Position numbers and translations under genes: made by a program
Notes under the pieces: generated by a model
Told to the model about the DNA's origin: nothing
Seen by the model: only the letters and a program-made list of their open reading frames with translations
Database searches by the model: none
In this document: positions 3,726-17,604 of the stretch, piece by piece
How positions within the stretch are numbered: the first letter of the stretch is position 1
Layout of the letters: every line of letters starts with the position of its first letter
Source of the DNA: Christensenellaceae bacterium
GTDB lineage: Bacteria > Bacillota > Clostridia > Christensenellales > Borkfalkiaceae
Assembly (NCBI GenBank): GCA_045603725.1
Contig: JAZUMP010000056.1
Location: 4,702 to 68,701 of the forward strand
DNA length: 64,000 nt
Reading direction: 5' to 3'

Positions 3726-4634
3726 TTATCCTTTTACGTGCCCTTTTTTAGTTATGTACGCTCTAACAGTAGGCGCTAAATCTCCAAGAAGCCTTTGAAT
3801 TTCATAATCGCTTTCAAATTCGCTTACCGCTTTATCTTTATCCATAGAAAAATAATATTCTAAAGCGTTTTGTAAAACTTTTTTTTCAACTTCACGAAGT
3901 TCAGGAATTGGACCGTCTAAAACGTAAGTAGGAATTACTCCACTATCTATCAATTCCTTTCTCTTTAGTTCTAAATTTTCGATATTGTCTTCAATATCTT
4001 TTAACTTTTGTTCTTCTAAAAGATTTACAATTTTTTCGTGGCGAGTTTGCTCTTTAAGTACACTGTTTTCATTATTTTTTAGTTCTATATCCGTTTCAGC
4101 GTTAAGATTATCTAGTTTTGCGTTTTTAGCGTCTTCGTATTTTTTATTTTCAGAAGAAACTATACTAGAGCGCCCAACACCGTTTTTTATAGCCTTATTA
4201 GTTGCCCTATTAACGTAATCTTTAAAATCGCTATTTATTTTATTAGTTTCCATTTCGTTGTTTGCCAAAATCGACTGTTTTTTAAAGTTTAAATTGTCAA
4301 TATTCGTGTCATTTTTATGATTTTCACTAATAAGTTCTTTTTGAAAAGCAGTTTCAGCAATTTCATTTGCTTGCTTTTCAATATTTTCATCGGTATATTT
4401 ACTATCTCTGAAATTTTCTAAATCGTATTTTACTTGATTCTCAATTCTCTCAATTTCTTTATTGAATTTGAGCAAATCGCTTTTTAGGCTTTCTCTTGAA
4501 GGCTTGTCCGACTCTTTTTTAGCCACGGTATAAACGGCTACTTCTTCTCCTTTTTTACTATCGTCTTTTTTAACGACGGGTATTATCTTCTGATTTTCCA
4601 GCCATTTTTTTATTTTTTCTTCAATGTTAAACAT
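3726..4634 (-). CDS. Coiled-coil, K/E/N-rich protein; last gene of the phage-like operon; function unknown
   Basis: 302 aa, lying 11 nt downstream of the preceding ORF. The sequence is heptad-like and charged. Confidence 0.45.
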   Translation of the reverse strand: MFNIEEKIKKWLENQKIIPVVKKDDSKKGEEVAVYTVAKKESDKPSRESLKSDLLKFNKEIERIENQVKYDLENFRDSKYTDENIEKQANEIAETAFQKELISENHKNDTNIDNLNFKKQSILANNEMETNKINSDFKDYVNRATNKAIKNGVGRSSIVSSENKKYEDAKNAKLDNLNAETDIELKNNENSVLKEQTRHEKIVNLLEEQKLKDIEDNIENLELKRKELIDSGVIPTYVLDGPIPELREVEKKVLQNALEYYFSMDKDKAVSEFESDYEIQRLLGDLAPTVRAYITKKGHVKG

Positions 4635-4645
4635 GTTACTCCTTT

Positions 4646-4864
4646 TTATATAATCGTAATTAAGTCTCTTATTCTTTTTAAGGTTTTACCGTCGTATAAA
4701 ACAATTTTTTCTTCACAGTAATCAATAAGGGTTTTTTCGCCCGCTTTATCGTTTACAACGGATTGTTTATACAAACAATTACCATCAGAAAATTCCACTT
4801 CAATTACTCCGTTATTATTTTTTATATGATAATTTTTTCCGTATTTAATATTGACCATTCTCAC
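4646..4864 (-). CDS. Small hypothetical protein in the phage-like operon
   Basis: 72-aa ORF in operon context with a ggag-type SD. Confidence 0.4.
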   Translation of the reverse strand: MRMVNIKYGKNYHIKNNNGVIEVEFSDGNCLYKQSVVNDKAGEKTLIDYCEEKIVLYDGKTLKRIRDLITII

Positions 4865-4903
4865 AACCTCTTTTAGCGGTATTTTTGATTTTATTTTGGG
4901 GAA

Positions 4904-5809
4904 TCAATCGGTAACGAGTTTGGCATTAGAATACTTATCTACAACTATCATACTGCCGTTTGACGTATTATCAGTGTAAAGTTTTACTCCGGTTTTACCC
5001 GTACTAATATAATTAAAACTAAAACTTAAACTGCAACTGCCTTTATAAATTTTAGAAAGTTTTGAAAAGTAAATAATAAAATTATTTCCATTTTTATAAC
5101 CACAAGCAGAAGTTACACCTACTACGTTTAAGGAATTCTCAGTATACGTTTTATTTTCTAAATCAACCTTAATAATTTTAAGTTCATCATTAATTGTTAT
5201 TGCTAGAATATATAGAAAAATATCGTTAACCGATATAATAGAACACTCTTTTAAATCGTTGAAAGTTAAAGTATTATGCAAAATTGAAGTGTAATAGCGA
5301 TAAAGACTTGCAGTGTTATCTTTTAAATGAAGTACGTAGTCAACGTTGTTATAATAATAATGCGATAAACTATTAACGGAATTAACGTAAGAAACGTTAC
5401 CGCTAAGTTTAAAATTTAAAACTTCTAAAACGGTAATTTCACCGCTAGAAATTTCAACAACGATTTCATTTATACCCTCGTTAAACGACGCTTCAAAATT
5501 AAAAGAGTGCTTTTTAGTTAAACGGCTTTTCACAGTATAAGCAACAACTCCGTTGACGTAAACGTACATATCAACCAAAAACAAAGTGCTAAGTGAAGTT
5601 TCTAAATTTCCACTTATACTATAAACTCCATTTTTTAATGAATTTACTTTAAACGACTTTTTAAAATTTTTGTTTTTATCAACGCCACTTAAATCGTAAA
5701 ATAATTCAGAATATACTGATTGCATCGCAAAATTTTCAAGTTTTTCTATTCTCTTTTCAAGACTGTTCAGTTTTAAATAAGCACGCTTTCCATAATCTTC
5801 AGTTACCAT
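4904..5809 (-). CDS. Putative fibre or receptor-binding-like structural protein
   Basis: The N-terminus has a short coiled coil (LNSLEKRIEKLEN) followed by a long beta-rich region. It overlaps the upstream ORF by 7 nt. The call rests on architecture only. Confidence 0.3.
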   Translation of the reverse strand: MVTEDYGKRAYLKLNSLEKRIEKLENFAMQSVYSELFYDLSGVDKNKNFKKSFKVNSLKNGVYSISGNLETSLSTLFLVDMYVYVNGVVAYTVKSRLTKKHSFNFEASFNEGINEIVVEISSGEITVLEVLNFKLSGNVSYVNSVNSLSHYYYNNVDYVLHLKDNTASLYRYYTSILHNTLTFNDLKECSIISVNDIFLYILAITINDELKIIKVDLENKTYTENSLNVVGVTSACGYKNGNNFIIYFSKLSKIYKGSCSLSFSFNYISTGKTGVKLYTDNTSNGSMIVVDKYSNAKLVTD

Positions 5810-7239
5810 AAACTCTCCTTAACGTAACTAAAGAAAAACGTTGGTTTTAAAATTTCCGGCTTTTTAGAATAGGATATAATTTTAAACTTAAATGTATTAC
5901 CTTTAAAGTTGGTTTTTAAAACGCTTGTCCCACTACTTACGTTATATATATTTGTTTTACCATCCACGATTACGTGAAGAATAATATCTTCGTTTGACGT
6001 TAATCTGATTTTGTCAAGTTTCTTTTTATTAGTCTCTATTGAAAAGTCAGTCTCTCCACTTATCCATACCTTTTTTAATGGTTTAGAAAATCTTTTGCCA
6101 CTATTATCAATCAAACATATTTTCCCGTTTGATATAGCGTAAACGTTATAATCTTTTCCTAAAATCAATTCAAAATCGTCTATTTTAAGACCTTTTGCCA
6201 AATAAGCAACTTTAGAATCAATATCGTAAACTAAAATTACCTTTTCAATTTTAGATTTAAACTTCATATTAAGGCTCAAATAAAGTTTACCGTTATAAAA
6301 AACACCTTTAGCGTCGTCGTTTTCTACGCCGTTTAAAAATCTATCGTAAAAGGGTAAAATTTTTACGGCGTCAATACCGTTAAACCTATAAAGCCCAGAT
6401 GAAGTTAAAAATATAACGTAACCACCACATTCAGTAACGGTATTTGCATAAATTTTACCAATATTATTATATAAATTATCTACGGAAAACTCCGTTTGGT
6501 CGCCATATGCGTAAATTCTAGATATTCCGTAAGAGCGAAAAACGAAAACGTAATCTAAAAAACTAACTACTTTTAAAAGTTTTCCACGCTCGTCAGGAAG
6601 TTCAATATACCCTGCTTCGTCGAGAGAAACCGACCAATTAGTCGGGTTAAAATCGTCGGAAAACCAAAGCGAAGTTCCCTCACCTGAAGTCGTAGCAAAA
6701 AGTCTTTCGCTATGAATACACATAGAACTTATTTTTGGCGCTGTTTCAACTTTTTCTAGCGTAGTATTATTCAATATATATAACCCTTCCTTTTCAAAAG
6801 AAAGAATTAAAACGTCTTCATCGGAAAAGTTGTAATTAATAGCAATCGGTGGAGCCAAAAAAGTATTTGACGATATTAGTTTAAAAGTTGAGTCTAATCC
6901 TATATTAATATAATACAGTCTTTTATCACTACCGAACACTACTATTCTATCAGTATTTAGATTAAGTGAAGCGTCGTATCTTTTGTAGTAATAGAGTTTT
7001 ATAGGCGTTACGTCGCTATTAAAAGTAACGCTTTTGCCGTTTATAAGATATTCTTTAATTCCTATTCCGGATTTTAACGTTCCATCAGAACAATCAAAAT
7101 TAAAAAGTATAGAAGCATCGGTAGGATTGGAAAGCATTTCATCAGATGAAATGCTTCCTTTAGTTAAAAACGAATTTAAAGAAATTTTTCTTTTCGTTAC
7201 GCTAGGCAGTTTTAACTTTGTATCGTAAATCATTGCCAA
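5803..7239 (-). CDS. Large beta-rich structural protein; possibly a propeller or 'stabilisation'/nozzle-like podovirus tail component
   Basis: 478 aa with repetitive beta-strand-like segments. It sits after the capsid and adaptor-size genes. Assignment is by size and position only. Confidence 0.3.
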   Translation of the reverse strand: MAMIYDTKLKLPSVTKRKISLNSFLTKGSISSDEMLSNPTDASILFNFDCSDGTLKSGIGIKEYLINGKSVTFNSDVTPIKLYYYKRYDASLNLNTDRIVVFGSDKRLYYINIGLDSTFKLISSNTFLAPPIAINYNFSDEDVLILSFEKEGLYILNNTTLEKVETAPKISSMCIHSERLFATTSGEGTSLWFSDDFNPTNWSVSLDEAGYIELPDERGKLLKVVSFLDYVFVFRSYGISRIYAYGDQTEFSVDNLYNNIGKIYANTVTECGGYVIFLTSSGLYRFNGIDAVKILPFYDRFLNGVENDDAKGVFYNGKLYLSLNMKFKSKIEKVILVYDIDSKVAYLAKGLKIDDFELILGKDYNVYAISNGKICLIDNSGKRFSKPLKKVWISGETDFSIETNKKKLDKIRLTSNEDIILHVIVDGKTNIYNVSSGTSVLKTNFKGNTFKFKIISYSKKPEILKPTFFFSYVKESLW

Positions 7240-7796
7240 ACCCTACCTTTTAACCTTTTACTCTTACCCGTTAACGGCCCGTTTTTTAATGCGTTTATAT
7301 ACTTTCCATGCCATAAATTTGCTTCTTCATAGCCACCTTTAATTAAAAAGTATTCCGTTAAAACTCCGTAGCAAAGTATTCTATCAGTAATACAAGTATT
7401 ATCATAATCGCTTATATCATCTAACTTTTTATAACTAGGCACATAATAATACTCAACTAAAACTTCGCTAGCGTTAACTACAATTTCGCTTGGTAAAATT
7501 TTAGCGTTTACTTTATTGCCTTTATCGTCTTTTACCGAAATAACCGCAAGCGGATTTTTTGAAAAATCCGCCATTTTAATTATGCCACCAGATTTAGGAG
7601 AAAGCCTTTCGGTAGTTTTAAATCTATAGTATAAAGACGCAATTTCTCCCCCAACTACGTTATAGCAGTTTACGAGTAGGTTTACGTCGTCTAAAACGCT
7701 TAAATAGTTTTCGGTGGCACCCGTGTTTAAATACTCAAGAATATCTTTTCTATCTAAAAATAGTGCAACCTTTTTAACAATATCTTTTACCGTCAT
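7230..7796 (-). CDS. Putative head-completion or head-tail adaptor protein
   Basis: 188 aa, located immediately downstream of the capsid gene. Confidence 0.3.
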   Translation of the reverse strand: MTVKDIVKKVALFLDRKDILEYLNTGATENYLSVLDDVNLLVNCYNVVGGEIASLYYRFKTTERLSPKSGGIIKMADFSKNPLAVISVKDDKGNKVNAKILPSEIVVNASEVLVEYYYVPSYKKLDDISDYDNTCITDRILCYGVLTEYFLIKGGYEEANLWHGKYINALKNGPLTGKSKRLKGRVWQ

Positions 7797-7816
7797 AAAT
7801 TCTCCTTAAAATCTTT

Positions 7817-8989
7817 TTACGCTTCGGTAATACCCGTAAGCATTGCTTGACCACAAGGTCTTGAACAAATAAGGTCAGCGTATTTAACGAGCGTAGCCTT
7901 ATATACCGGTTTATCGGCAACTTGCTTTATAACCTTACCGTCTTCACCTTCAAGCCACTTCCAATCACATAATTGATGAAGTATAAAGTCGTCGGTATTA
8001 AGTAAATACATAGTACCTTCCGGACAGAAACGGTCTGAAACGATAGGAATACCGTTATAAGAAAGCGCTTTATATCCACCGTTTAAATCCATTACGTCAA
8101 TATTTCTTTTATAAGTAGATAAATGGTTTTGGAATGCTCTTTTAACACCACTTGAACAAATAATGAAGTTAACTCTAGAACCTGCGTTTTCGTCAAGATA
8201 GTCAATAGCCGTTTGAATAGCAGTTTCAGAAATTTCACCCACGTTACTTTTAATATATGGAATTAACCATTTATGAGTGCTTCTATCTAGACCGTAAATT
8301 TCGCCAGTCGTTTTAAATATTGCACCTAAACCCGTAATTTCTTGATTGTAAGAACCTTGAACAGTGATAATACTATCTTTAGGAACGTTAGTTGACGTTA
8401 ATGAAGTACCTGTAACGCTAACGGTTTTCGCGCTTCTATCAACCGAAATAATTCTTCTTTGAGTAGCGCCTGAAATTGTAGTGCCGTCTGCATTTCTAAA
8501 GTCAACAACCATACCTTCAACTAGGTTTTTAACGTTGTCAACGGTTACTACGCCGTTAGCAATAGAAACTACTTTAGAAAGAACGCCAGAGCCGTCGCCA
8601 AACAACATTCTTCCAAAATTATATGAAGATGCTCTAAGTAAGCCTTCCATTTCGGCGTTTAATAAGTTAACGAAAGCACCTGAACTATTTTCCGAAGCCC
8701 TAATTGCCTTATCGCTAATTTCAATAGTACCATAAAGGTTTTTTAACGTTAAAATAAATTGTTCGTAATTATTACCTGCGGCTTCTGGAAGAGCACCGTC
8801 TTCATCACCAGCACCAATACCACCGTTTAATCCGTATTGAGCAAGCCTTCTAATTTCTTTACCCCAAACGTCTTGAGTAGACTGTTTGATTTTAGCAAGT
8901 AAAGGATTTATAGCGGTATTGAGTTGTTCTGAAACCACCCCGAGATATGCGGATTTTAATGCTTCATCGGCTGTTTTCATTGTAATCAT
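7817..8989 (-). CDS. Phage major capsid protein (HK97-fold type, scaffold-dependent)
   Basis: 390 aa, directly after a scaffold-like gene with an ATGA overlap. The sequence style (...GLDRSTHKWLIPY..., ...GTMYLLNTDDFILHQL...) is typical of HK97-like capsid families. Confidence 0.7.
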   Translation of the reverse strand: MITMKTADEALKSAYLGVVSEQLNTAINPLLAKIKQSTQDVWGKEIRRLAQYGLNGGIGAGDEDGALPEAAGNNYEQFILTLKNLYGTIEISDKAIRASENSSGAFVNLLNAEMEGLLRASSYNFGRMLFGDGSGVLSKVVSIANGVVTVDNVKNLVEGMVVDFRNADGTTISGATQRRIISVDRSAKTVSVTGTSLTSTNVPKDSIITVQGSYNQEITGLGAIFKTTGEIYGLDRSTHKWLIPYIKSNVGEISETAIQTAIDYLDENAGSRVNFIICSSGVKRAFQNHLSTYKRNIDVMDLNGGYKALSYNGIPIVSDRFCPEGTMYLLNTDDFILHQLCDWKWLEGEDGKVIKQVADKPVYKATLVKYADLICSRPCGQAMLTGITEA

Positions 8990-9648
8990 AAATTAATATT
9001 CTCCTTAGATTTTTCAAAAATTTGCCGTGCTAAATTACCTGCATCGGCAAGGCTTTTAGGCGTTGACGGTGGCGACACGGTCGCCAATCCGTTGCCTGAA
9101 ATTAGCTTGATAGCCGGTTTAGAGTTTTCAATTTCACTTAAATACTCTTTTATTATTTGGTTTTTAAGTTCTTCGTTTGAGTTAACGGCATTTTTTACGT
9201 AGTCTATTGAATTAAAATAATTAATTTTATCTTCGTAATTTTTAGTTAACTTCTTTAAATACGCTCGACCAAGCCATCCTTTGCTATCGTCGCTATACAA
9301 GGCGGTATCGTATAGCGACTCGAAATCTTCTTCAGCATCTGGAAAAATCTCTAGAAATGCCTTTCTTTCCCACTCACGCCCGTCAAATAAAGAATCACTA
9401 AGCGATTGTTCTTTTTTAACTTGCGAATTTTCCCTTTCCAACTCCTTAACTCTCTGACAGCGTCTGGTAAATTCAGATTGCAAGGCGTTGTAAGCGTTAA
9501 GAAGGGATTTAACATCTTTAAACTTGCCTAAATCTTCAGTCGCGCCTAAATCACTTTCTGCCACTGCAGTTTGCGCCGAATCATTTTTTATAGTTTTAGC
9601 CGTTAAATTCTCCTTAATTTCTCCCGCTGCAATATTATTTGTTTCCAT
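8986..9648 (-). CDS. Putative scaffolding protein
   Basis: 220 aa, acidic and helical/coiled-coil, lying between the portal and the capsid. No prohead protease gene is present. Confidence 0.5.
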   Translation of the reverse strand: METNNIAAGEIKENLTAKTIKNDSAQTAVAESDLGATEDLGKFKDVKSLLNAYNALQSEFTRRCQRVKELERENSQVKKEQSLSDSLFDGREWERKAFLEIFPDAEEDFESLYDTALYSDDSKGWLGRAYLKKLTKNYEDKINYFNSIDYVKNAVNSNEELKNQIIKEYLSEIENSKPAIKLISGNGLATVSPPSTPKSLADAGNLARQIFEKSKENINL

Positions 9649-11533
9649 TTAACTCATCAATCCCCTTTAATATTTCCTTTTTTAAAAGGTAGTTTTTATG
9701 TTCGCCGTAATGCTTTTTAAGCCTTTTTGCAAACTCGTAATTTTTATCAATATTAACGTCTTCTTCAAGTATTTTTCTTAAATGTTCTTCTAAGTGAACT
9801 TCGTGGTTATCGTAATCGTCTACAACCACTTCACTTTCTAACATGTCAATATTTTCCTTTTCGGCTTTGCTTCTATGCATACTTGCTAAATCTTGCGCAT
9901 TGTCAAGCGAACCATAACCTAAAATTTCTAAAATTTTACCTTTAGTTCTTAAACTAATAACTCCGTTATCGTCGCCTAAAAGCCCCGTTCTTAACATTTC
10001 GAGCATAGCAGTTTTCTTTTGTGCAGGCGTTTGAGAAATTTCATTTTCAGTATCAAAAACCACGTCGTCTGAAGAAATATCACTCGCTTTAAAGTAAAAT
10101 AATTTAACTAGTTTTGCATTGCCTGCGTTTTTCATAATTCTAGTAGACGTTGCAAATTGTTTGTATATTCTTAAAATATGTTTTGCAATATCTTTAACAG
10201 CGTTTCTAACGCTATCGGCAGTTACCGATAAACGCGTTTCGTCTTGCTCGATTAAAAGTTCAAGCGCCACGCCCGACATAGTAGGGTCGCCAAGATTATA
10301 ACTTCTTGAAATTTCGCTCGTTCCAGAAATTGATACGAATTCGTTATAAAGCCTTTCTTCTTCATACGTAAAGTCTGCAGGAACGGAATTGCTATTCATT
10401 ATTTCAGGAGGTCTTGCACCCTGCCTATAAACTATAACCTTACCGGGCGACAATCCTTCGTCAATTAGTTCTTCCGTATCAACCGAGCCGTCTTCAACCT
10501 TTAAAACACCCATACTAATACGGTTCATAAACTCGTATTTTCTATTTTTTACGGCGTTATACGCTCTTTGAAGTGGAATTAATCTTTCAATAATACTTTC
10601 ACCAAAGAAATTCCCTGCTCTATTAAGAGCCGTTTGTTTTACGAACGGAAAAGTTCTTCTTAATTCAACGCCGTTTTTATACGGGAGTTCACCGTCGAAT
10701 AAAAGTGCGTCTTTAGTAACAATAATTAACCTACCGTTTGGATATTCACTATTTGGAGCAACGTATTTTTCTAAAACAAGTGCGTGATTTTTTAAGGTTG
10801 AAGAAATTTTTTTAGTAGAGTTTAAATTTAATAAATTATCTTCGGTTTTATTTAAACTAAAAACGTCTAACTCTTCACCTATAACTCTTTTACCGTACAG
10901 TTCGTAAATCGTATCAGCGTCTACTGCCCTTGCATGAATTAGACTTTTTAAATCTTCTATTTCACTTTTAAAAATAGAGTCTGGAAAAATTTCAAAGGGA
11001 GAAATTGCCGAAACTTCCACGTCGCCTTCCTTAATTTCCAACCCGTCTTTTTCGCCTAAAACTTTACCTTTTTTATCGTTCCAAGTTATCTTATAAAACG
11101 CAGTACCTAACGATTCCGACCAAACGGTAGCGTCTTTTATAACTTTATCAAGTGATATTCTTTGATAAGTAGAATTTAAAATTTCAGTTGATATTTCAGC
11201 AGTTTTTAAATCTTTATCTTCTCCACCCGACGCTCTTACCGACATACTAGGCCTAACTCTAGAAAGTTTAGCAAGCCTAGTATCTATAATCGGCGCGATG
11301 TGATTAAACACGCTTCTACTTTGCCAACCGTAATACTTTTCTTCTTCCTTAACTTCGCCCATTAAATCAACTTCGCAGTATTGATTTCCAGATAAATAAT
11401 TAAGATTTAATTTCCATTGTCTTTCAAGAAATTTTCTTTCTTCTCTTCGCCTTTCAAAATCCTCAAAAACACTCATTATTATTTGTTTTTCTAAATTGCT
11501 ATCTAATAGTTCTTTACTTAGCGTTTTCATCAT
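9635..11533 (-). CDS. Phage portal protein
   Basis: 632 aa, positioned between the terminase and the scaffold. The N-terminus carries ...ERQWKLNLNYLSGNQY..., a pattern seen in portal families. Confidence 0.7.
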   Translation of the reverse strand: MMKTLSKELLDSNLEKQIIMSVFEDFERRREERKFLERQWKLNLNYLSGNQYCEVDLMGEVKEEEKYYGWQSRSVFNHIAPIIDTRLAKLSRVRPSMSVRASGGEDKDLKTAEISTEILNSTYQRISLDKVIKDATVWSESLGTAFYKITWNDKKGKVLGEKDGLEIKEGDVEVSAISPFEIFPDSIFKSEIEDLKSLIHARAVDADTIYELYGKRVIGEELDVFSLNKTEDNLLNLNSTKKISSTLKNHALVLEKYVAPNSEYPNGRLIIVTKDALLFDGELPYKNGVELRRTFPFVKQTALNRAGNFFGESIIERLIPLQRAYNAVKNRKYEFMNRISMGVLKVEDGSVDTEELIDEGLSPGKVIVYRQGARPPEIMNSNSVPADFTYEEERLYNEFVSISGTSEISRSYNLGDPTMSGVALELLIEQDETRLSVTADSVRNAVKDIAKHILRIYKQFATSTRIMKNAGNAKLVKLFYFKASDISSDDVVFDTENEISQTPAQKKTAMLEMLRTGLLGDDNGVISLRTKGKILEILGYGSLDNAQDLASMHRSKAEKENIDMLESEVVVDDYDNHEVHLEEHLRKILEEDVNIDKNYEFAKRLKKHYGEHKNYLLKKEILKGIDELNGNK

Positions 11534-11714
11534 TTTTCTCCTTAACCTTATATACTTTAGTTAAAACTTTTAATACGCCCAAAGCACATTTGGGGCACAA
11601 TTTTAAACTGTCGTATAGTTTAGAATTTTCGCTTTTTTTAATATAGTATTCGGCTAAATTATTACACCCTACTATATCGCAAACTACGCTTGGTTTTAAA
11701 TTTTCAATTTGCAT
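11514..11714 (-). CDS. Small CxxC...CxxC zinc-ribbon protein
   Basis: Contains CDIVGC...CPKCA. 66 aa, overlapping the portal start. Confidence 0.5.
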   Translation of the reverse strand: MQIENLKPSVVCDIVGCNNLAEYYIKKSENSKLYDSLKLCPKCALGVLKVLTKVYKVKEKNDENAK

Positions 11715-11715
11715 A

Positions 11716-12000
11716 TTAAATCTCCTTATTTTCTATTTTTTTTAAAAGTTCTAGAAGTCGGATTTTCTCTTTTTCTAGTTCTTCATCAGATAAAGTTTTT
11801 AAATCTTGTTCACCGTCAAGTTCAACTAAGAGTTTTACCGCTGAAACGTCGGGTGGAACGTTTTTTGAAACAACTTTTTTCTTAACCATACGAACACCGC
11901 CTTCATCGTCTCCAACGTATTCTTCGGTTATTTCTTTGGCTTCGTAGCCAATAGCCCTTTTATAAAGAGCGTCTTTTACGTCGTTATTATCCGTAGCCAA
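11716..12000 (-). CDS. Terminase small-subunit-like fragment: C-terminal motif only, with no HTH domain
   Basis: LYKRAIGYEAKE...KKKVVSKNVPPDVSAVKLLVE resembles the conserved C-terminal A-x-GY...K-x-x-PPD-x-x-A block of Firmicute phage TerS proteins. The protein is only 94 aa and lies downstream of TerL, not upstream. Confidence 0.45.
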   Translation of the reverse strand: MATDNNDVKDALYKRAIGYEAKEITEEYVGDDEGGVRMVKKKVVSKNVPPDVSAVKLLVELDGEQDLKTLSDEELEKEKIRLLELLKKIENKEI

Positions 12001-13420
12001 TACCTCCTTTACTTCTCCTTGCTTTTCTAATTAAACGCTGTTTATCTTTTTGTACGTCAGTTAAAATTTTAGTGGGTTTATCTACGTGTGGTTTAGTCAT
12101 TATGTAATAGCGAAGTTCGTCAAGCGAATGGTCGTTGCGCTTAACCGGCATATCGTTATTACCCCATCTATAACCCTTTAATTCTTTAATCATGCTTACA
12201 CAGTTTTTAAAGATAAAAATTTTATTGTTTTTAAAAAAGCATTTAACCCTATTAATTCCAGTAAATAAATCCTTATTTACGTTTGTTGACAGATTAATTC
12301 CGTTTTCATAAAAAAGTTCGGAAACGGATTTAGAATAAGCAAGCGTTTTTTGATTTGCAGCCGAATCGATTATTCCTTTTAACTTACCCGAAAAATCCTT
12401 ATGCCAATTAAGTTCGCTCGCAATAGCCTTGATTTTATTTGCGTGAGTTTCTACATCTAGCCCCGCTTCGTAATGCTCTGCAACGACGTAAACGTTTCCA
12501 TCGTAATCAACGGCGTAAAAATGGCAAGAAAGTGGATTTTTAAGACCTGGGTCAATAGATATCATATCTTGCCAATCGCTAGGCACTGTAAAAGGCTCTA
12601 TAACGTGTACGTTTTCATCAAACTCGTAGTATACGGGCCCCGTATCTTCAAAGAACCTTCCGTATCTTCGCGATTCAAGTTCGCGCTCAGATAAACTACT
12701 TGTTAGCGCTTTTATCTCTTTTTTACTCAAATATGGATTATCTGCCCACTCTATAAATTCGTACCAAACGTCTTTAGAGTTATTTGAGTTTAAAAATATT
12801 TCGTCGTAAATAAAAGTTAAGCCTTTAAGTGGAGTCATCGTGCCGAAAATATCTCCACGCTTATCTAATACGCGCATACGGCACTCATCGTAAATATCTT
12901 TAGGTGGTTCTTCATCAAACCACACAAAGTCTAGAGAACTGCCTTGAAATTTTTCACGACCTTGGTCGCAACTTTTAAAGCCTATTACCGATACGCCACC
13001 TAGTACGTTTTTTATTTTTATTTGGTCGATAACCCCTGAGCGAGGGCTATCTTTTTTACCCGAAAGCATCGTAATATCAATAATCCAATCCGGGTTTAGA
13101 TATTTTAAAATTTTATCTTGGGCAACGTCTCGCTGAACTTGTTGCGATAGTGAAACCACCCAACCAAAAACTGATTTTTTATTTTTTCTATAAGGATGTA
13201 TTCCCCTTGCCATATATACGGCTTCGACTGCACCACACTCGGTTTTCCCACTTCTATTTCCACCAAAAACCCATCTATTTCGCTTTTTACACTTGTGAAA
13301 TTTGAGTTGCTTTTTATGCACCTTTTTACCCGTGTTATATCGTAAAAGAGTATTGTTTTCGTATCTTCTTAACTCTTCCATTTCTATTTGTTTTAACTTT
13401 TTAATAATTTTTTCTTGCAT
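11987..13420 (-). CDS. terL: Terminase large subunit
   Basis: Walker A GGNRSGKT (aa 53-60), Walker B LDFVWFDEE (aa 163-171) and a TMTP coupling motif are present. The C-terminal nuclease-like part contains ISIDPG... and ...IIDSAAN. Confidence 0.85.
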   Translation of the reverse strand: MQEKIIKKLKQIEMEELRRYENNTLLRYNTGKKVHKKQLKFHKCKKRNRWVFGGNRSGKTECGAVEAVYMARGIHPYRKNKKSVFGWVVSLSQQVQRDVAQDKILKYLNPDWIIDITMLSGKKDSPRSGVIDQIKIKNVLGGVSVIGFKSCDQGREKFQGSSLDFVWFDEEPPKDIYDECRMRVLDKRGDIFGTMTPLKGLTFIYDEIFLNSNNSKDVWYEFIEWADNPYLSKKEIKALTSSLSERELESRRYGRFFEDTGPVYYEFDENVHVIEPFTVPSDWQDMISIDPGLKNPLSCHFYAVDYDGNVYVVAEHYEAGLDVETHANKIKAIASELNWHKDFSGKLKGIIDSAANQKTLAYSKSVSELFYENGINLSTNVNKDLFTGINRVKCFFKNNKIFIFKNCVSMIKELKGYRWGNNDMPVKRNDHSLDELRYYIMTKPHVDKPTKILTDVQKDKQRLIRKARRSKGGIGYG

Positions 13421-13493: not shown

Positions 13494-14225
13494 ATGAAAA
13501 AACTGTTAACTTTTTTATTTTCGGTTTATGCATTAGGTTTTATTTATCTAACACCTATAAATACTTATAAAGCCGAGTCGGAAATTTATATGCGCGTATT
13601 ATCAAACGGCGTATACGTTTATTCCGACAATAATTTAACTAATAAATTGTTTGAAATTCCATACGGTTACTACGTTAAAGTAGAAAACGTTAGTGGAAAC
13701 ACCGTGCGTGTTACGTACGGCAATAATAATGAAAATTACCCTGTTATTATGGGTTATTGTAAAAAAGAAGAATTAACTGAAATTACGTACACGCCCAATA
13801 AACCGTTTACAGTCATTAAAGTTTCAACTTCGCTTAGCGACGTTTTGTTTAACGACCCAAATTTATCAAAGGCGTATTTCAACGTCCCGGAAAATACCTT
13901 TATGTATTATTACGGCGAATATAAATCTATTAGTGGGAATAATATTTGCTACGTTTATTGCAATAATAAACTTGGCTATTTTGACGTTACGTGCCTAAAC
14001 CCATTTACAGTACCAGAAAGCCCTGACGTTATCGAAACTCCAAATGAAAACGAAAACAAGGAGCAGAGTCCGCAAGAAGAAAACAAAAAACCGAACTCGC
14101 TCCCTGCCGAAAGTTTACAAATTATTATAATTATAGGATTATCGGTAATATCAATATCAATAGTTTATTACCTATTTAAACCAAGTAAACAAAAAACCGA
14201 AAAGCAATTTTTTAATGAAGAATAA
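13494..14225 (+). CDS. Membrane-anchored SH3b-domain surface protein
   Basis: It has a signal peptide (..TYKA/ES) and an SH3b-like segment (YMRVLSNGVYVYSD...GYYVKVENVSGNTVRVTYG). A P/E/N-rich linker and a C-terminal TM helix (IIIIIGLSVISISIVYYLF) follow. Confidence 0.6.
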   Translation: MKKLLTFLFSVYALGFIYLTPINTYKAESEIYMRVLSNGVYVYSDNNLTNKLFEIPYGYYVKVENVSGNTVRVTYGNNNENYPVIMGYCKKEELTEITYTPNKPFTVIKVSTSLSDVLFNDPNLSKAYFNVPENTFMYYYGEYKSISGNNICYVYCNNKLGYFDVTCLNPFTVPESPDVIETPNENENKEQSPQEENKKPNSLPAESLQIIIIIGLSVISISIVYYLFKPSKQKTEKQFFNEE

Positions 14226-14696
14226 TCAATCTATAACGTGTTTTTTACCCATTTCATTTATAGTTTTTTGATAAATGCCGGCAATGTAAGAAATTTTTAA
14301 ATACTTATCTAAAAACCACTTTTCGTCGTAACCTTTAGAATTTAAAATTTTATCGAATTTCTCAATAGCGCGATTTTGTTTTCTAAAATAATTTCTAGAT
14401 TTTAAATCAAAATTTTCATCTTTAGGTAAAATGCCAAAATATTTGTAATAAATAAGCGTTCTGTCGGTTTCACTTAAAACCTCGAGCGCTTCTTTTGTTA
14501 TTTGCTTTAACTCTAATAAATCAAATTTCACTTCGTTAAGTTTAATAATCTTTTCAGCCTGAGAATACGTTGACGTATAATTAAAAAAGGAATTTTTAAC
14601 CTTGCTTTTAATTAAATTCTCAATTTGCATTACGACTTTATCTAAAGTTCGATAACAAGACAACATAGTTTTTCCGTAACAACTCATACCTTTCAC
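14226..14696 (-). CDS. Putative sigma-70 region-4 / ArpU-like late-gene transcriptional regulator
   Basis: 156 aa. The C-terminal segment LSETDRTLIYYKYFG...RNYFRKQNRAIEKF resembles region 4 of small phage sigma-like activators. The gene sits just upstream of the terminase block on the same strand. Confidence 0.35.
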   Translation of the reverse strand: MKGMSCYGKTMLSCYRTLDKVVMQIENLIKSKVKNSFFNYTSTYSQAEKIIKLNEVKFDLLELKQITKEALEVLSETDRTLIYYKYFGILPKDENFDLKSRNYFRKQNRAIEKFDKILNSKGYDEKWFLDKYLKISYIAGIYQKTINEMGKKHVID

Positions 14697-14712: not shown

Positions 14713-14742
14713 ATTATATAGCCTTTTCGCTACAAATTTCAA
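14713..14742 (-). promoter_or_regulatory. Sigma-A-type promoter for the 14226..14696 regulator
   Basis: On the minus strand: TTGAAA, then 16-18 nt, then TATA(TA)AT. It lies about 20 nt upstream of the SD ggaggtg. Confidence 0.5.
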
Positions 14743-14747
14743 TCGTA

Positions 14748-14807
14748 TATGACAATTTTAAACAAAATAATTTTAATTTTTAACATTTTTGTTTAAATTA
14801 TGTCATA
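14748..14807. promoter_or_regulatory. Large imperfect inverted repeat with TATGACA half-sites; operator-like
   Basis: TATGACAATTTTAAAC (14748-14763) faces GTTTAAATTATGTCATA (14791-14807). It directly abuts the -35 of the regulator promoter. Confidence 0.4.
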
Positions 14808-14812
14808 TTCTG

Positions 14813-14840
14813 TTGATTTATAGATTTTTTGTTCGTATAA
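14813..14840 (+). promoter_or_regulatory. Sigma-A-type promoter, TTGATT-N16-TATAAT
   Basis: The hexamers are at 14813-14818 and 14835-14840. Confidence 0.5.
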
Positions 14841-14851
14841 TATTGTATTTC

Positions 14852-14865
14852 CGAACATTTGTTCG
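14852..14865. promoter_or_regulatory. LexA (Cheo/SOS) box, CGAACATTTGTTCG
   Basis: Perfect match to the Gram-positive LexA operator dyad CGAAC-N4-GTTCG. It lies about +5 to +18 relative to the 14813-14840 promoter. Confidence 0.65.
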
Positions 14866-14888
14866 TATATATAATAAAAAAATAAATA

Positions 14889-14903
14889 TGACAAGAACTG
14901 TCA
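14889..14903. promoter_or_regulatory. TGACA-N5-TGTCA palindrome; a second operator-like site
   Basis: tgacaagaactgtca uses the same half-site as the 14748-14807 repeat. Confidence 0.35.
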
Positions 14904-14951: not shown

Positions 14952-14979
14952 TTGAAATTTTATAAATATATGTTATACT
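14952..14979 (+). promoter_or_regulatory. Extended -10 promoter, TTGAAA-N16-(TGt)TATACT, proximal to the 847-aa gene
   Basis: The hexamers are at 14952-14957 and 14974-14979, with TG at 14971-14972. Confidence 0.5.
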
Positions 14980-15019: not shown

Positions 15020-17563
15020 ATGAAAAAAATCGGTTTATTTATTTTATCTATAATATTCTCCCTATCTTTTTTGTTAGGGATTTTTACTATTGATAAAAAA
15101 ATTGCATTTGCTGAAGAAACTGCAGTTGCCGACACTCAACTTTTTTTACCTTCAAGCCCTATTGAATTTTATGATTTAGACTCGCCTATTTCCGTTTCAT
15201 ATTCTAGTGACGGCTATATGATTATTTCGGAATATTATCAAAATAGCGAAACGGGATATACTAGAAACAGAATAAACGTGTATAATCCTGAAACAAAAAC
15301 CTACTCAATACTTCCTTCACACTCGTCTTTGTCTTCAATTTCACAAATACAAAAGTATGGTGAGTTTATTTATTACGTTAGCCAATCGCAAATTTACTAC
15401 GTGCCTGCAAATCAATTAACGGCTACGCCAAAGGTCGTTTTAGATACGTTGGGCATGCCGGTAATAGTTGCTAACTTTTTCTCTTTTTACGAAAACAAAG
15501 TAGTTGCTAACACTAACAATTTTGCTAATATTTACGAAATAACTATATCTAGTGGCGTTCCCGTTTTTAAAAAATTATACGATTTTGAAACTTTTGCAAA
15601 AGCAGGTTTCTTTGCAGAAGACGGGAATATTTATCTTCTTGATAACGGCACGTTAAAATTTTATCGCGCAAACGATAAAACCATGGTAACTTTAACAACC
15701 ATTAATAAAGACGTTATAAGTTTATTAGACGTTGGCGACTACGTTTGGTACACTGCGGTTGACGGGCTTTATAAAGTTAAAAAACAGCAAAACGCCGAGT
15801 CGGAACTCATAATTCCGGTTAGCGATACAGCAACCACTCTTGGCAATTTACGCTCACCTAAAGGTCTAAGCAAAAAAGACGGTAATTTATTAATTGCTGA
15901 CGATATTTTAAATTGCATTCAAGAAGTCAACACTAAAACTAACGATTTTACCTACTTTGCTATAACCACGGAAGCAACGGCAGATTATCGTTTAACTAAA
16001 GATGCGGAAATGGTAACACTCAGCGAAAACTACGTTTACGCTCTTGATAACGCAACGTTTAAGACCGGTGAATCCACCCCGCAAAAACGTATCGTGAAAG
16101 TTTCTAAAGATAAAGAAATTTATCCATACCGTAAAATTGATTTATCTTCTTTGTACGTTGAAAACGCCGATTTAAAAATAGAACTTTTTACTGCTTCTGA
16201 CACTCATCTTATGATTTATGACGGCGAGTTTGTAACCCTATATAAGCAAACAAATTCTAGCCCGATTACACTAGAAAAACTAGAAACCTATCAATCGTCA
16301 TCAGTAACTTCACTATTTTATTTAGACAATAGTTTTTATTTTTCCGATACTTCACGTGAAAATTACACTCACGATATTGTCAACGTTCATAAAATTACGT
16401 TGCCAAGCCCTAACGATGAACTTGAAGAAATAACTAAAACGCTCATAACTAACACCTCCAATCAAATAAAAGGTATTGCAGTTGATTTCACCGTTGATAT
16501 TTTTGGAAACGTTATAATAGCATACAAAGAAAGTGAAAATAGCACCACTTATAAAATTACCCGAATATTTGGCAATCAAATCACTTCAACAACCACCGTT
16601 AATCACCCTATTTTATCGATAGAAACGGATTTTTCTGGAAACGTTTTTATTTTAAGTGAAAATAATAAAATTTATAAATACACTGAGAAAGATAGCACGT
16701 ACGTTAAAAGTGATTATACTGTAAAACCAATATATAACGATACAATTACTTCTCTCGCTCTTAACTATCGCTCTAGCGACTGTTTCTATATGGGCGACGC
16801 GTGCATATACAAAAATAGCGATAACGTTCTCAATATTAAAAGTTTATCGAAAATATCGGCAGATAACGTTAACGAAAATAAAATTTTAAAAGACATTAAT
16901 TTTGTAACGATAAAAGAAAACGCAAAGATTTTTAAAGTGGAACTTGGAAATTATTTAGTTGATAACGGAAAAAAATATTTTAAAAATATAACGCCTATAT
17001 CTAACCCCAACACTTTAAGAGTTTACGCTGTAATTGCTGAAGTTGATAACGATTACTTACTTATTTCATACTCGCAAAATTTAACGGCGCTTATAAGAAA
17101 AACGTCTATTGGCAATGCTAATGGCGACGCTAGCATTTTAAGCCCTACAGATTATAAGAATTATAACGTTTCGCACGTAAACAATAACGGCAAACCCGTT
17201 TACTTAAGCAATAACTCACATTTATACGCTAAACCTATCGTTGATAGTAATTATAAACTTATTTCCCTTAATAAAGGTCAAAAAGTTTACGCTTATAACG
17301 AATATAAGTTTAACAAAACTAGTATGACTTTAATTTCGCTTAATGAAGGCGGTGAGCCTATTGGATATATAGTTTCAGGCTATTTAAGATTAACGATGGA
17401 ATCGTCTGGCAAAAATATTGAAAGCACTGAAACCACTATTGGAACTAACGCTTCAAAACGCACTAAAACCACTGCTTTAATGCTTATAATTTCGCTTACT
17501 ATCACGCTAGCACTTATATTTATAGAATCTAAACTCTTATTTACTGAAGAAAAAAACAAATAA
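15020..17563 (+). CDS. Large secreted, membrane-anchored beta-propeller-like (NHL/YVTN-style) protein with a C-terminal SH3b domain
   Basis: It has a signal peptide (..IAFA/EE) and about 600 aa of repetitive beta-rich sequence, e.g. LRSPKGLSKKDGNLLIADDILNCIQEV. An SH3b-like segment (HLYAKPIVDSNYKLISLNKGQKVYAY...GYIVSGYL) and a C-terminal TM helix follow. Confidence 0.6.
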   Translation: MKKIGLFILSIIFSLSFLLGIFTIDKKIAFAEETAVADTQLFLPSSPIEFYDLDSPISVSYSSDGYMIISEYYQNSETGYTRNRINVYNPETKTYSILPSHSSLSSISQIQKYGEFIYYVSQSQIYYVPANQLTATPKVVLDTLGMPVIVANFFSFYENKVVANTNNFANIYEITISSGVPVFKKLYDFETFAKAGFFAEDGNIYLLDNGTLKFYRANDKTMVTLTTINKDVISLLDVGDYVWYTAVDGLYKVKKQQNAESELIIPVSDTATTLGNLRSPKGLSKKDGNLLIADDILNCIQEVNTKTNDFTYFAITTEATADYRLTKDAEMVTLSENYVYALDNATFKTGESTPQKRIVKVSKDKEIYPYRKIDLSSLYVENADLKIELFTASDTHLMIYDGEFVTLYKQTNSSPITLEKLETYQSSSVTSLFYLDNSFYFSDTSRENYTHDIVNVHKITLPSPNDELEEITKTLITNTSNQIKGIAVDFTVDIFGNVIIAYKESENSTTYKITRIFGNQITSTTTVNHPILSIETDFSGNVFILSENNKIYKYTEKDSTYVKSDYTVKPIYNDTITSLALNYRSSDCFYMGDACIYKNSDNVLNIKSLSKISADNVNENKILKDINFVTIKENAKIFKVELGNYLVDNGKKYFKNITPISNPNTLRVYAVIAEVDNDYLLISYSQNLTALIRKTSIGNANGDASILSPTDYKNYNVSHVNNNGKPVYLSNNSHLYAKPIVDSNYKLISLNKGQKVYAYNEYKFNKTSMTLISLNEGGEPIGYIVSGYLRLTMESSGKNIESTETTIGTNASKRTKTTALMLIISLTITLALIFIESKLLFTEEKNK

Positions 17564-17564
17564 C

Positions 17565-17604
17565 AAAATCGCGTTCTTTTATTTGAGAACGCGATTTTAG
17601 TTTT
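17565..17604. terminator. Bidirectional rho-independent terminator
   Basis: aatcgcgttc pairs with gaacgcgatt as a hairpin, flanked by an A-run and a T-run, between convergent genes. Confidence 0.75.

Follow-up and report, generated by a model that had tools for sequence, protein, structure and literature searches.

A predicted LexA operator upstream of the regulator gene of a conserved phage-like particle cluster in the Christensenellaceae

In the tectivirus GIL01 of Bacillus thuringiensis, the host LexA protein binds at dinBox1 and silences promoter P1 (PMC4551915). In Caulobacter crescentus, the LexA-like protein RogA represses gafYZ, the activator genes of the GTA (PMC9632790). LexA was reported to be required for RcGTA of Rhodobacter capsulatus, apparently acting indirectly via cckA (Kuchinski 2016, as cited in PMC9638019). 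For PBSX of Bacillus subtilis, xkdA appears in a listing of the LexA/SOS regulon (PMC3896406). Finally, the FpGTA paper described GTA-like packaging in gut Ruminococcaceae, Oscillospiraceae and Christensenellaceae, found host DNA in capsid fractions and called GTAs likely SOS-inducible; it reports no LexA site or regulator, and the term LexA is absent from its text (PMC12946183). A literature search for papers on LexA in the Christensenellaceae group found none.

We analysed a stretch of 64,000 nucleotides from a Christensenellaceae bacterium (assembly GCA_045603725.1; 1.55 Mb in 76 contigs, 33.7% G+C, 93% complete), hereafter called the window, in which a sequence-only reading had pointed out a perfect LexA box and had proposed that it places a phage-like gene cluster under SOS control. 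Our analysis supports this proposal, to the extent that genome comparison can, through the presence in the genome of a lexA gene with its own box, through conservation of the site in the family and through co-loss of the box and lexA. The reading that we favor, with a probability of about 0.72, is that the dyad is a high-affinity operator for the host LexA and gates the regulator of the particle cluster. The genes of the locus are as follows.

3726-13420, minus strand: phage-derived packaging, head and short-tail operon, the presumed downstream target of the regulator
7817-8989, minus strand: major capsid protein, SU10-type, within the particle operon
9635-11533, minus strand: portal, P22-type, within the particle operon
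11987-13420, minus strand: TerL, within the particle operon
13494-14225, plus strand: 243-aa protein gene, antisense, embedded between the regulator gene and terL
14226-14696, minus strand: regulator gene, 156 aa, shortened to 153 aa if translation begins, as is likely, at the ATG at 14687
15020-17563, plus strand: 847-aa protein gene, transcribed away from the regulator gene; both ends of the protein contain hydrophobic segments

As judged from its genes, the cluster would encode a domesticated, GTA-like, short-tailed phage particle. A TerL orthologue is present as a single copy in 198 of 201 family genomes (63-80% identical among the matches listed), the gene order terL, 243-aa gene, regulator gene and box is the same throughout the family loci examined, and the 847-aa gene comes next after the box wherever it is detectable. 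The cluster, the only conserved particle cluster, had been taken for an accessory island; its single-copy, near-universal occurrence in the family instead marks it as a vertically inherited host locus. The regulator had likewise been called divergent; its gene shares the strand of the capsid operon and diverges from the 847-aa gene alone.

The 14-bp box, CGAACATTTGTTCG, was confirmed at positions 14852-14865 of the window as a perfect match to CGAAC-N4-GTTCG. On the minus strand, in the direction of the regulator gene, it reads CGAACAAATGTTCG. The box equals the Gram-positive LexA consensus known from Bacillus, CGAAC-N4-GTTCG (PMC4551915), and also fits the clostridial LexA motif, GAAC-N4-GTTC/T (PMC4234289). 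It is the only perfect CGAAC-N4-GTTCG site in the entire 1.55-Mb assembly. The earlier estimate that well under one such match is expected by chance in the window proved right, as dinucleotide shuffles of the window gave a mean of 0.03 matches and at least one match in 3 of 100 shuffles, though a base-composition calculation predicts approximately 0.4 perfect boxes per genome of 1.55 Mb. When perfect matches were counted in 38 genomes of the genus, no excess was seen over the reversed control pattern; the count was equal to or below that of the control, and we rejected enrichment of perfect matches as evidence. Given the genome-wide expectation and the lack of excess over the control, a perfect match alone is weak evidence.

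Such numbers are what would be expected if the box were a chance palindrome in AT-rich intergenic DNA, without a regulatory role. The actual evidence for a role lies elsewhere, in the fact that nearly all relatives carry this same 14-mer at the corresponding locus. In the genus, the box was found at 15 of the 15 loci with enough sequence to be assessed, 143-207 nt upstream of the regulator gene and in the form C/T/A-GAACAAATGTTC-G/T. An alignment of 16 intergenic regions identified it as the longest stretch of conservation within the 323 bp between the two genes, with 13 consecutive columns at 85% or more and a mean majority fraction of 0.99, compared to 0.65 elsewhere. The exact 14-mer occurs in at least 29 of the 38 genus genomes among the matches listed, usually once, where a calculation gives approximately 0.01 expected by chance, and two further genus genomes carry it at this locus.

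Conservation extends well beyond the genus. At 51 of 59 family loci (21 genera), the 450 nt ahead of the regulator orthologue contain a LexA-type box. It reads exactly CGAACAAATGTTCG in regulator orientation at 23 of these 51 loci, with the opposite spacer orientation in only one, while the regulator proteins of the same loci share only 22-59% identity. Among 35 loci fetched through TerL from MAGs, 29 had the box, and three of the six that did not are interrupted by contig ends; these loci partly overlap the 59-locus sample, so the two counts are not independent. The MAGs belong to Christensenellaceae or Clostridia from the guts of human, sheep, goat, yak and deer. Because the identical 14-mer is found at the orthologous position in dozens of species, despite strongly diverged flanks and neighbor proteins, the chance explanation is in effect refuted. 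The site is almost certainly functional, as judged by this conservation, and very probably a LexA operator. In one further genus, the box lies beyond an insertion. In genus g12, in which lexA is present, only a half-decayed copy of the box was seen at the same position.

For the genome to use such an operator it must encode LexA, and the lack of lexA had been named in advance as an outcome that would speak against the proposal. A full-length lexA gene was found on contig C49 (8512-9105; 205 bits against TIGR00498). It encodes a LexA of the cleavable type, with an N-terminal DNA-binding domain and S24 self-cleavage motifs; the Ala-Gly cleavage motif (VTAGTP), the GDSM serine and the VKRF lysine are all visible. 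The lexA promoter itself carries TAAACAAATGTTTG, which overlaps the -35 element, and in 27 further genus genomes lexA is likewise preceded by an equivalent site, of the form y-r-AAC-N4-GTTTG. These lexA sites fit the clostridial motif and the Bacillus consensus. We built a weight matrix solely from lexA-upstream windows of the other genus members (28 windows, of which 27 are lexA-upstream and one, L059, is a coding-region artefact), and with this matrix the box ranked 7th of approximately 1.55 million positions. Two LexA-type boxes, AGAACATTTGTTCA and CAAACATTTGTTTG, were also found upstream of an rSAM gene (TIGR03916, "DNA modification/repair radical SAM"). Sites of the form rAACAWWTGTTy lie between ORFs in 6 of 6 cases in this genome, in which ORF coverage is 87%.

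The sequence-only reading had suggested a search for boxes at recA, lexA and uvrAB. Of these, lexA has a related box, but neither inspection by eye nor the weight matrix revealed a LexA-type box upstream of recA or of uvrBA. The recA gene is the last of a pgsA-cinA-recA gene string (C20:45373-48010), and uvrBA forms its own operon (C41:4953-9747). Since recA and uvrBA lack boxes, the SOS regulon would be small and atypical, and the calibration of the motif is weakened. As predicted here, the regulon is reduced to lexA, the rSAM repair gene, the particle regulator and mobile elements. Thus, it would be an unusually small SOS regulon without recA and uvrBA boxes, in which the box studied here is the best match to the consensus.

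The lack of boxes at these core SOS genes could also mean that the dyad serves a different repressor whose specificity is LexA-like, either a LexA paralogue or an element-encoded repressor. The genome does encode a second LexA-like gene (C64:10025-10657; 131 bits against TIGR00498) and an S24-type repressor, and more than one regulator clearly acts on the region. However, a second LexA-like match was found in only 3 of 38 genus genomes, this genome included, whereas the box is near-universal; the paralogue is therefore probably borne by a mobile element. It is also preceded by a different palindrome, GCAACAAAGTGTTGC, whereas the promoter of the housekeeping lexA shares the AACAAATGTT core with the box. 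The paralogue gene is located just upstream of a giant ORF of approximately 4,000 aa.

The distribution of lexA in the family bears on the same question. We found lexA in 187 of 201 family genomes and in 164 of the 169 of good quality. Three good-quality genomes in which lexA was not found, G003, G004 and G028, are also without the box, which argues against another repressor acting at this site. G003 and G004 are the only sampled genomes of genera g4 and g5, respectively, and G028 belongs to genus g8, of which three other examined members have a perfect box. G004 retains the upstream palindrome and the -10 element, while G028 retains only the proximal promoter. A counter-example is G062 (94% complete, fragmented), in which the box is present and lexA was not detected. 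Taken with the evidence on the paralogue, this makes operation of the box by a repressor other than the housekeeping LexA improbable, and a host LexA operator remains our reading of the site.

Which promoter the bound LexA would control depends on the arrangement of the elements around the box, which is as follows.

14713-14742, minus strand: proximal sigma-A-type promoter of the regulator gene, TTGAAA-18-TATAAT, 11 of 12 matches
14747-14808: inverted half-sites ATATGACA (14801-14808) and TGTCATAT (14747-14754), both read on the minus strand
14813-14841, plus strand: promoter TTGATT-17-TATAAT, which reads through the box toward the 847-aa gene
14852-14865, no strand assigned: putative LexA operator CGAACATTTGTTCG, identified by its sequence, the intergenic alignment and its genus and family conservation
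14871-14876, minus strand: TATTAT hexamer, the -10 element of the distal regulator promoter; 5 nt separate it from the box downstream
14889-14903, no strand assigned: palindrome TGACA-N5-TGTCA, located where the distal regulator promoter has its -35 region

At nearly all 51 boxed loci, a TAnnAT hexamer, often with TGn before it, precedes the box by 5-14 nt in the direction of the regulator gene. Across genera the box thus comes after a -10 element directed at the regulator gene, which therefore appears to be the gene under control. In the window, the TATTAT element is only 5 nt away from the box, and the start site of this distal promoter is therefore predicted to lie inside the box. The distal promoter has no canonical -35 element at the proper distance: TTGACA and TTGTCA are 22 and 12 nt from the -10 element, and TGTCAT is only 11-12 nt from it. 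The TGACA-N5-TGTCA palindrome that occupies the -35 region is probably the operator of a second regulator.

The same arrangement, ATGACA-N5-TGTCATA followed 10-12 nt later by a (TGn)TAnnAT -10 element, was seen at no fewer than eight other promoters in the genome. The sites of the palindrome include C11:2736, C11:9908, C11:23466, C44:1426, C72:3174, C66:25115 and C27:20688, and genes for a serine recombinase and for TnpB-like proteins are among those with palindrome-bearing promoters.

The sequence-only reading had drawn attention to a plus-strand promoter that faces the box. The promoter exists, although its spacer is 17 nt rather than 16 and its last position is 14841 rather than 14840. It is possible that LexA binds the box and that this is the relevant promoter, in which case the SOS response would induce the 847-aa protein and the particle genes would be controlled otherwise. 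The promoter has canonical -35 and -10 elements with 17-nt spacing, and the box covers approximately +4 to +17 from its predicted start. Conserved -10 elements flank the box, at 5 nt on the minus strand and at 10 nt on the plus strand, and the TTGA-17/18-TAnAAT arrangement is conserved in this genus (g1) and in six others (g14, g15, g16, g20, g21 and g22). In addition, the regulator gene has a proximal promoter beyond the reach of the box, approximately 110 nt downstream of it. The TATAAT of this proximal promoter is invariant in the genus, and transcription from it could bypass LexA.

On the other hand, loci at which the box adjoins the regulator's ribosome-binding site have no facing promoter. 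These are the loci of g7, g9, g11, g13 and g18, in which the box lies directly between the -10 element and that ribosome-binding site and the start of the 847-aa homologue is more than 200 nt away. The features shared family-wide are the AAAT spacer, as read toward the regulator gene, and the -10 element on the regulator side. We thus regard SOS control of the 847-aa gene in place of the particle regulator as unlikely, though a less distant prospect than a different repressor at the box. In this genus the two readings are compatible with each other. Since there is one box between two facing -10 elements, one LexA dimer could block both promoters here, and direct control of the 847-aa gene is possible because the plus-strand promoter is conserved, though only in this genus and some others. 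Of the two alternative targets originally put forward, the 847-aa gene and the regulator, the regulator is therefore the better supported. Most likely, LexA at the box represses the promoter of the particle-cluster regulator, and in this genus it perhaps also blocks the promoter that faces the 847-aa gene. The latter gene is served by a separate proximal promoter at 14952-14979 and is followed by a strong terminator (17565-17598), and it is syntenic in the genus, with 32-41% identity over the aligned N-terminal part of the protein.

Two further features near the box were considered as candidates and rejected. An extra GTTCG half-site, as reported earlier, is present at 14831-14835; it is not conserved in other members of the genus, is probably there by chance and was rejected as a second LexA site. 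A structured RNA in the long leader of the regulator gene was also rejected. The leader folds well in this genome (z = -5.1), but 15 relatives keep only 6 terminal pairs, the consensus structure has an energy of -1.65 kcal/mol and there is no covariation; a search of the region against Rfam gave no match. The inverted half-sites at 14747-14808, of which TGTCATAT adjoins the -35 element of the proximal promoter, are thus best read as DNA half-sites and not as an RNA stem.

From this arrangement, the following course of events can be proposed for the preferred reading, LexA control of the regulator. In the undamaged cell, a LexA dimer on the box would cover the start-site region of the distal regulator promoter (-10 element at 14871-14876). 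Upon DNA damage, activated RecA would cause LexA to cleave itself, the distal promoter would fire and the regulator would be made. The regulator would then turn on the terminase, portal and capsid operon, or its own transcript would read through into the operon. In this genus, bound LexA would in addition block the plus-strand promoter at 14813-14841, toward the gene for the 847-aa membrane protein. A second regulator probably binds the TGACA/TGTCA palindromes and would gate both regulator promoters. Thus, DNA damage probably switches on the production of virus-like particles. We infer LexA binding, the start sites, damage inducibility and activation of the particle genes by the regulator from the features described above.

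The regulator gene was found in 172 of 201 family genomes. The regulator and 43 homologues matched no Pfam, NCBIfam or PHROG family of the ArpU, RinA, DUF1492 or Xpf kind. An AlphaFold2 model built with the 43 homologues is all-helical (pLDDT 93.9). Its best structural matches in BFVD are small phage proteins named sigma-70 region 4, ECF sigma, DUF1492 and transcriptional activator; these matches are modest (TM-scores 0.35-0.64, E from 0.006 to 0.1). Searched against the PDB, the family profile gave a weak match to sigma region 4 of 8x6g_H (E = 0.07), and a Foldseek search of the model gave no match. The regulator may thus be a phage-type protein that resembles sigma-70 region 4, a resemblance that is weak by sequence and modest by predicted structure. 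In genus g10, a TerL orthologue was detected in 15 of 16 genomes and the 156-aa regulator in 0 of 16; the g10 regulator may have been replaced or may be too diverged for detection.

Two routes from the regulator to the particle operon are conceivable. A search for terminator-like sites on the minus strand from 15785 to 10276 gave none, and the 243-aa gene, which is syntenic in all loci examined, is antisense to the operon, with a stop codon that abuts the stop codon of the regulator gene. Transcription from the regulator promoters would therefore cross the 243-aa gene in antisense and continue into terL. We found no convincing motif common to the region upstream of terL and the regulator promoters. 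Because the regulator gene and the operon lie on the same strand with no terminator-like site between them, the regulator could act by activation, by read-through or by both. We infer the link from the regulator to the particle operon from its position and fold. The 243-aa protein has hydrophobic segments at both ends, as judged from the translation without a predictor. Its gene appears to be leaderless, with a TATAAT 9 nt before the ATG that is conserved in the family.

Compared to the described systems, the locus shares its control logic with several of them and its full arrangement with none. As in GIL01, the host LexA rather than a phage CI protein would act directly on a phage promoter, as predicted here from sequence, at a near-consensus CGAAC-N4-GTTCG box just downstream of the start site, where the SOS response lifts the block in GIL01. 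In contrast to this locus, GIL01 is a replicating temperate phage and needs the cofactor gp7 and a second half-site, dinBox1b; the cluster described here is chromosomal and vertically inherited, and the half-site near its box is unconserved. As in the Caulobacter GTA, a repressor of LexA architecture would hold off the element through dedicated activator gene(s). However, RogA is a dedicated paralogue without cleavage residues and without an SOS response, whereas the operator described here matches the housekeeping, cleavable LexA. The activators are also unrelated, being GafYZ in Caulobacter and a sigma-region-4-like protein of 156 aa here. RcGTA is similar in that the SOS master regulator influences a domesticated phage particle, but LexA is required there and acts indirectly, whereas here LexA is predicted to be a direct repressor at the regulator promoter.

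PBSX offers a parallel from another Firmicute, as a defective phage-like particle that is fixed in the chromosome and responds to DNA damage with induction. The PBSX late genes need a small sigma-like factor, Xpf. PBSX is long-tailed, while the particle genes here are podovirus-like, and it has an Xre repressor between the SOS response and the late genes, where LexA is predicted to act directly on the promoter of the sigma-like regulator in the present case. With the elements of the FpGTA paper, the cluster has in common the habitat and, in the case of the Christensenellaceae, the bacterial group. The GTA-like packaging reported there for Christensenellaceae MAGs would be indirect support for host-DNA packaging by particles of the present cluster. 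The locus would differ from the known cases in the use of the housekeeping, cleavable LexA and in direct control of the element's own sigma-like regulator. It would further differ in its podovirus-like particle cluster and in having an operator fixed throughout a whole family of gut Clostridia that are uncultured.

A more far-reaching interpretation, which we hold only tentatively and at somewhat less than even odds, is that throughout the family the housekeeping LexA replaced the phage repressor as the direct master switch of a domesticated, GTA-like system, by means of one maximal-affinity operator between two facing promoters. If true, LexA would be bound more tightly at the box than at any other site in the genome, and the box would therefore open only under severe damage. 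Drugs that damage DNA, or inflammation, would in that case be direct triggers for an abundant and heritable gut taxon to package and release host DNA. Under the reading that we favor, LexA would directly gate the activator of a GTA-like element, in contrast to the indirect or paralogue-based control in alphaproteobacteria. The presence of a predicted LexA operator family-wide on the regulator of the conserved cluster also provides a concrete candidate trigger for host-DNA packaging in the Christensenellaceae, namely the SOS response, caused for example by fluoroquinolones or oxidative stress. In addition, CGAACAAATGTTCG upstream of the regulator gene can serve as a simple sequence marker for such loci in metagenomes.

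Two observations were made outside of the typical arrangement of the locus. In a distant, high-G+C relative from a sheep rumen MAG (JAFXQO010000079; locus L146, 2760-3001), the TerL of which is 49% identical, CGAACAAATGTTCT is found 236 nt upstream of terL itself and immediately after an ECF sigma/anti-sigma gene pair. This arrangement may represent a different wiring of the same control. In the genome under study, two copies of a relaxase-bearing mobilisable element carry the LexA-type boxes TAAACATATGTTCG and TAAACATATGTTTG, at C39:10569-10582 and C53:43572-43585, respectively. These boxes are situated 1 nt after a CATAAT hexamer and approximately 50-60 nt before a GC-rich hairpin that is followed by a T-run; the arrangement could yield a short RNA under SOS induction. 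Beside the box of the mobilisable element is a conserved stretch of approximately 300 nt that is non-coding.
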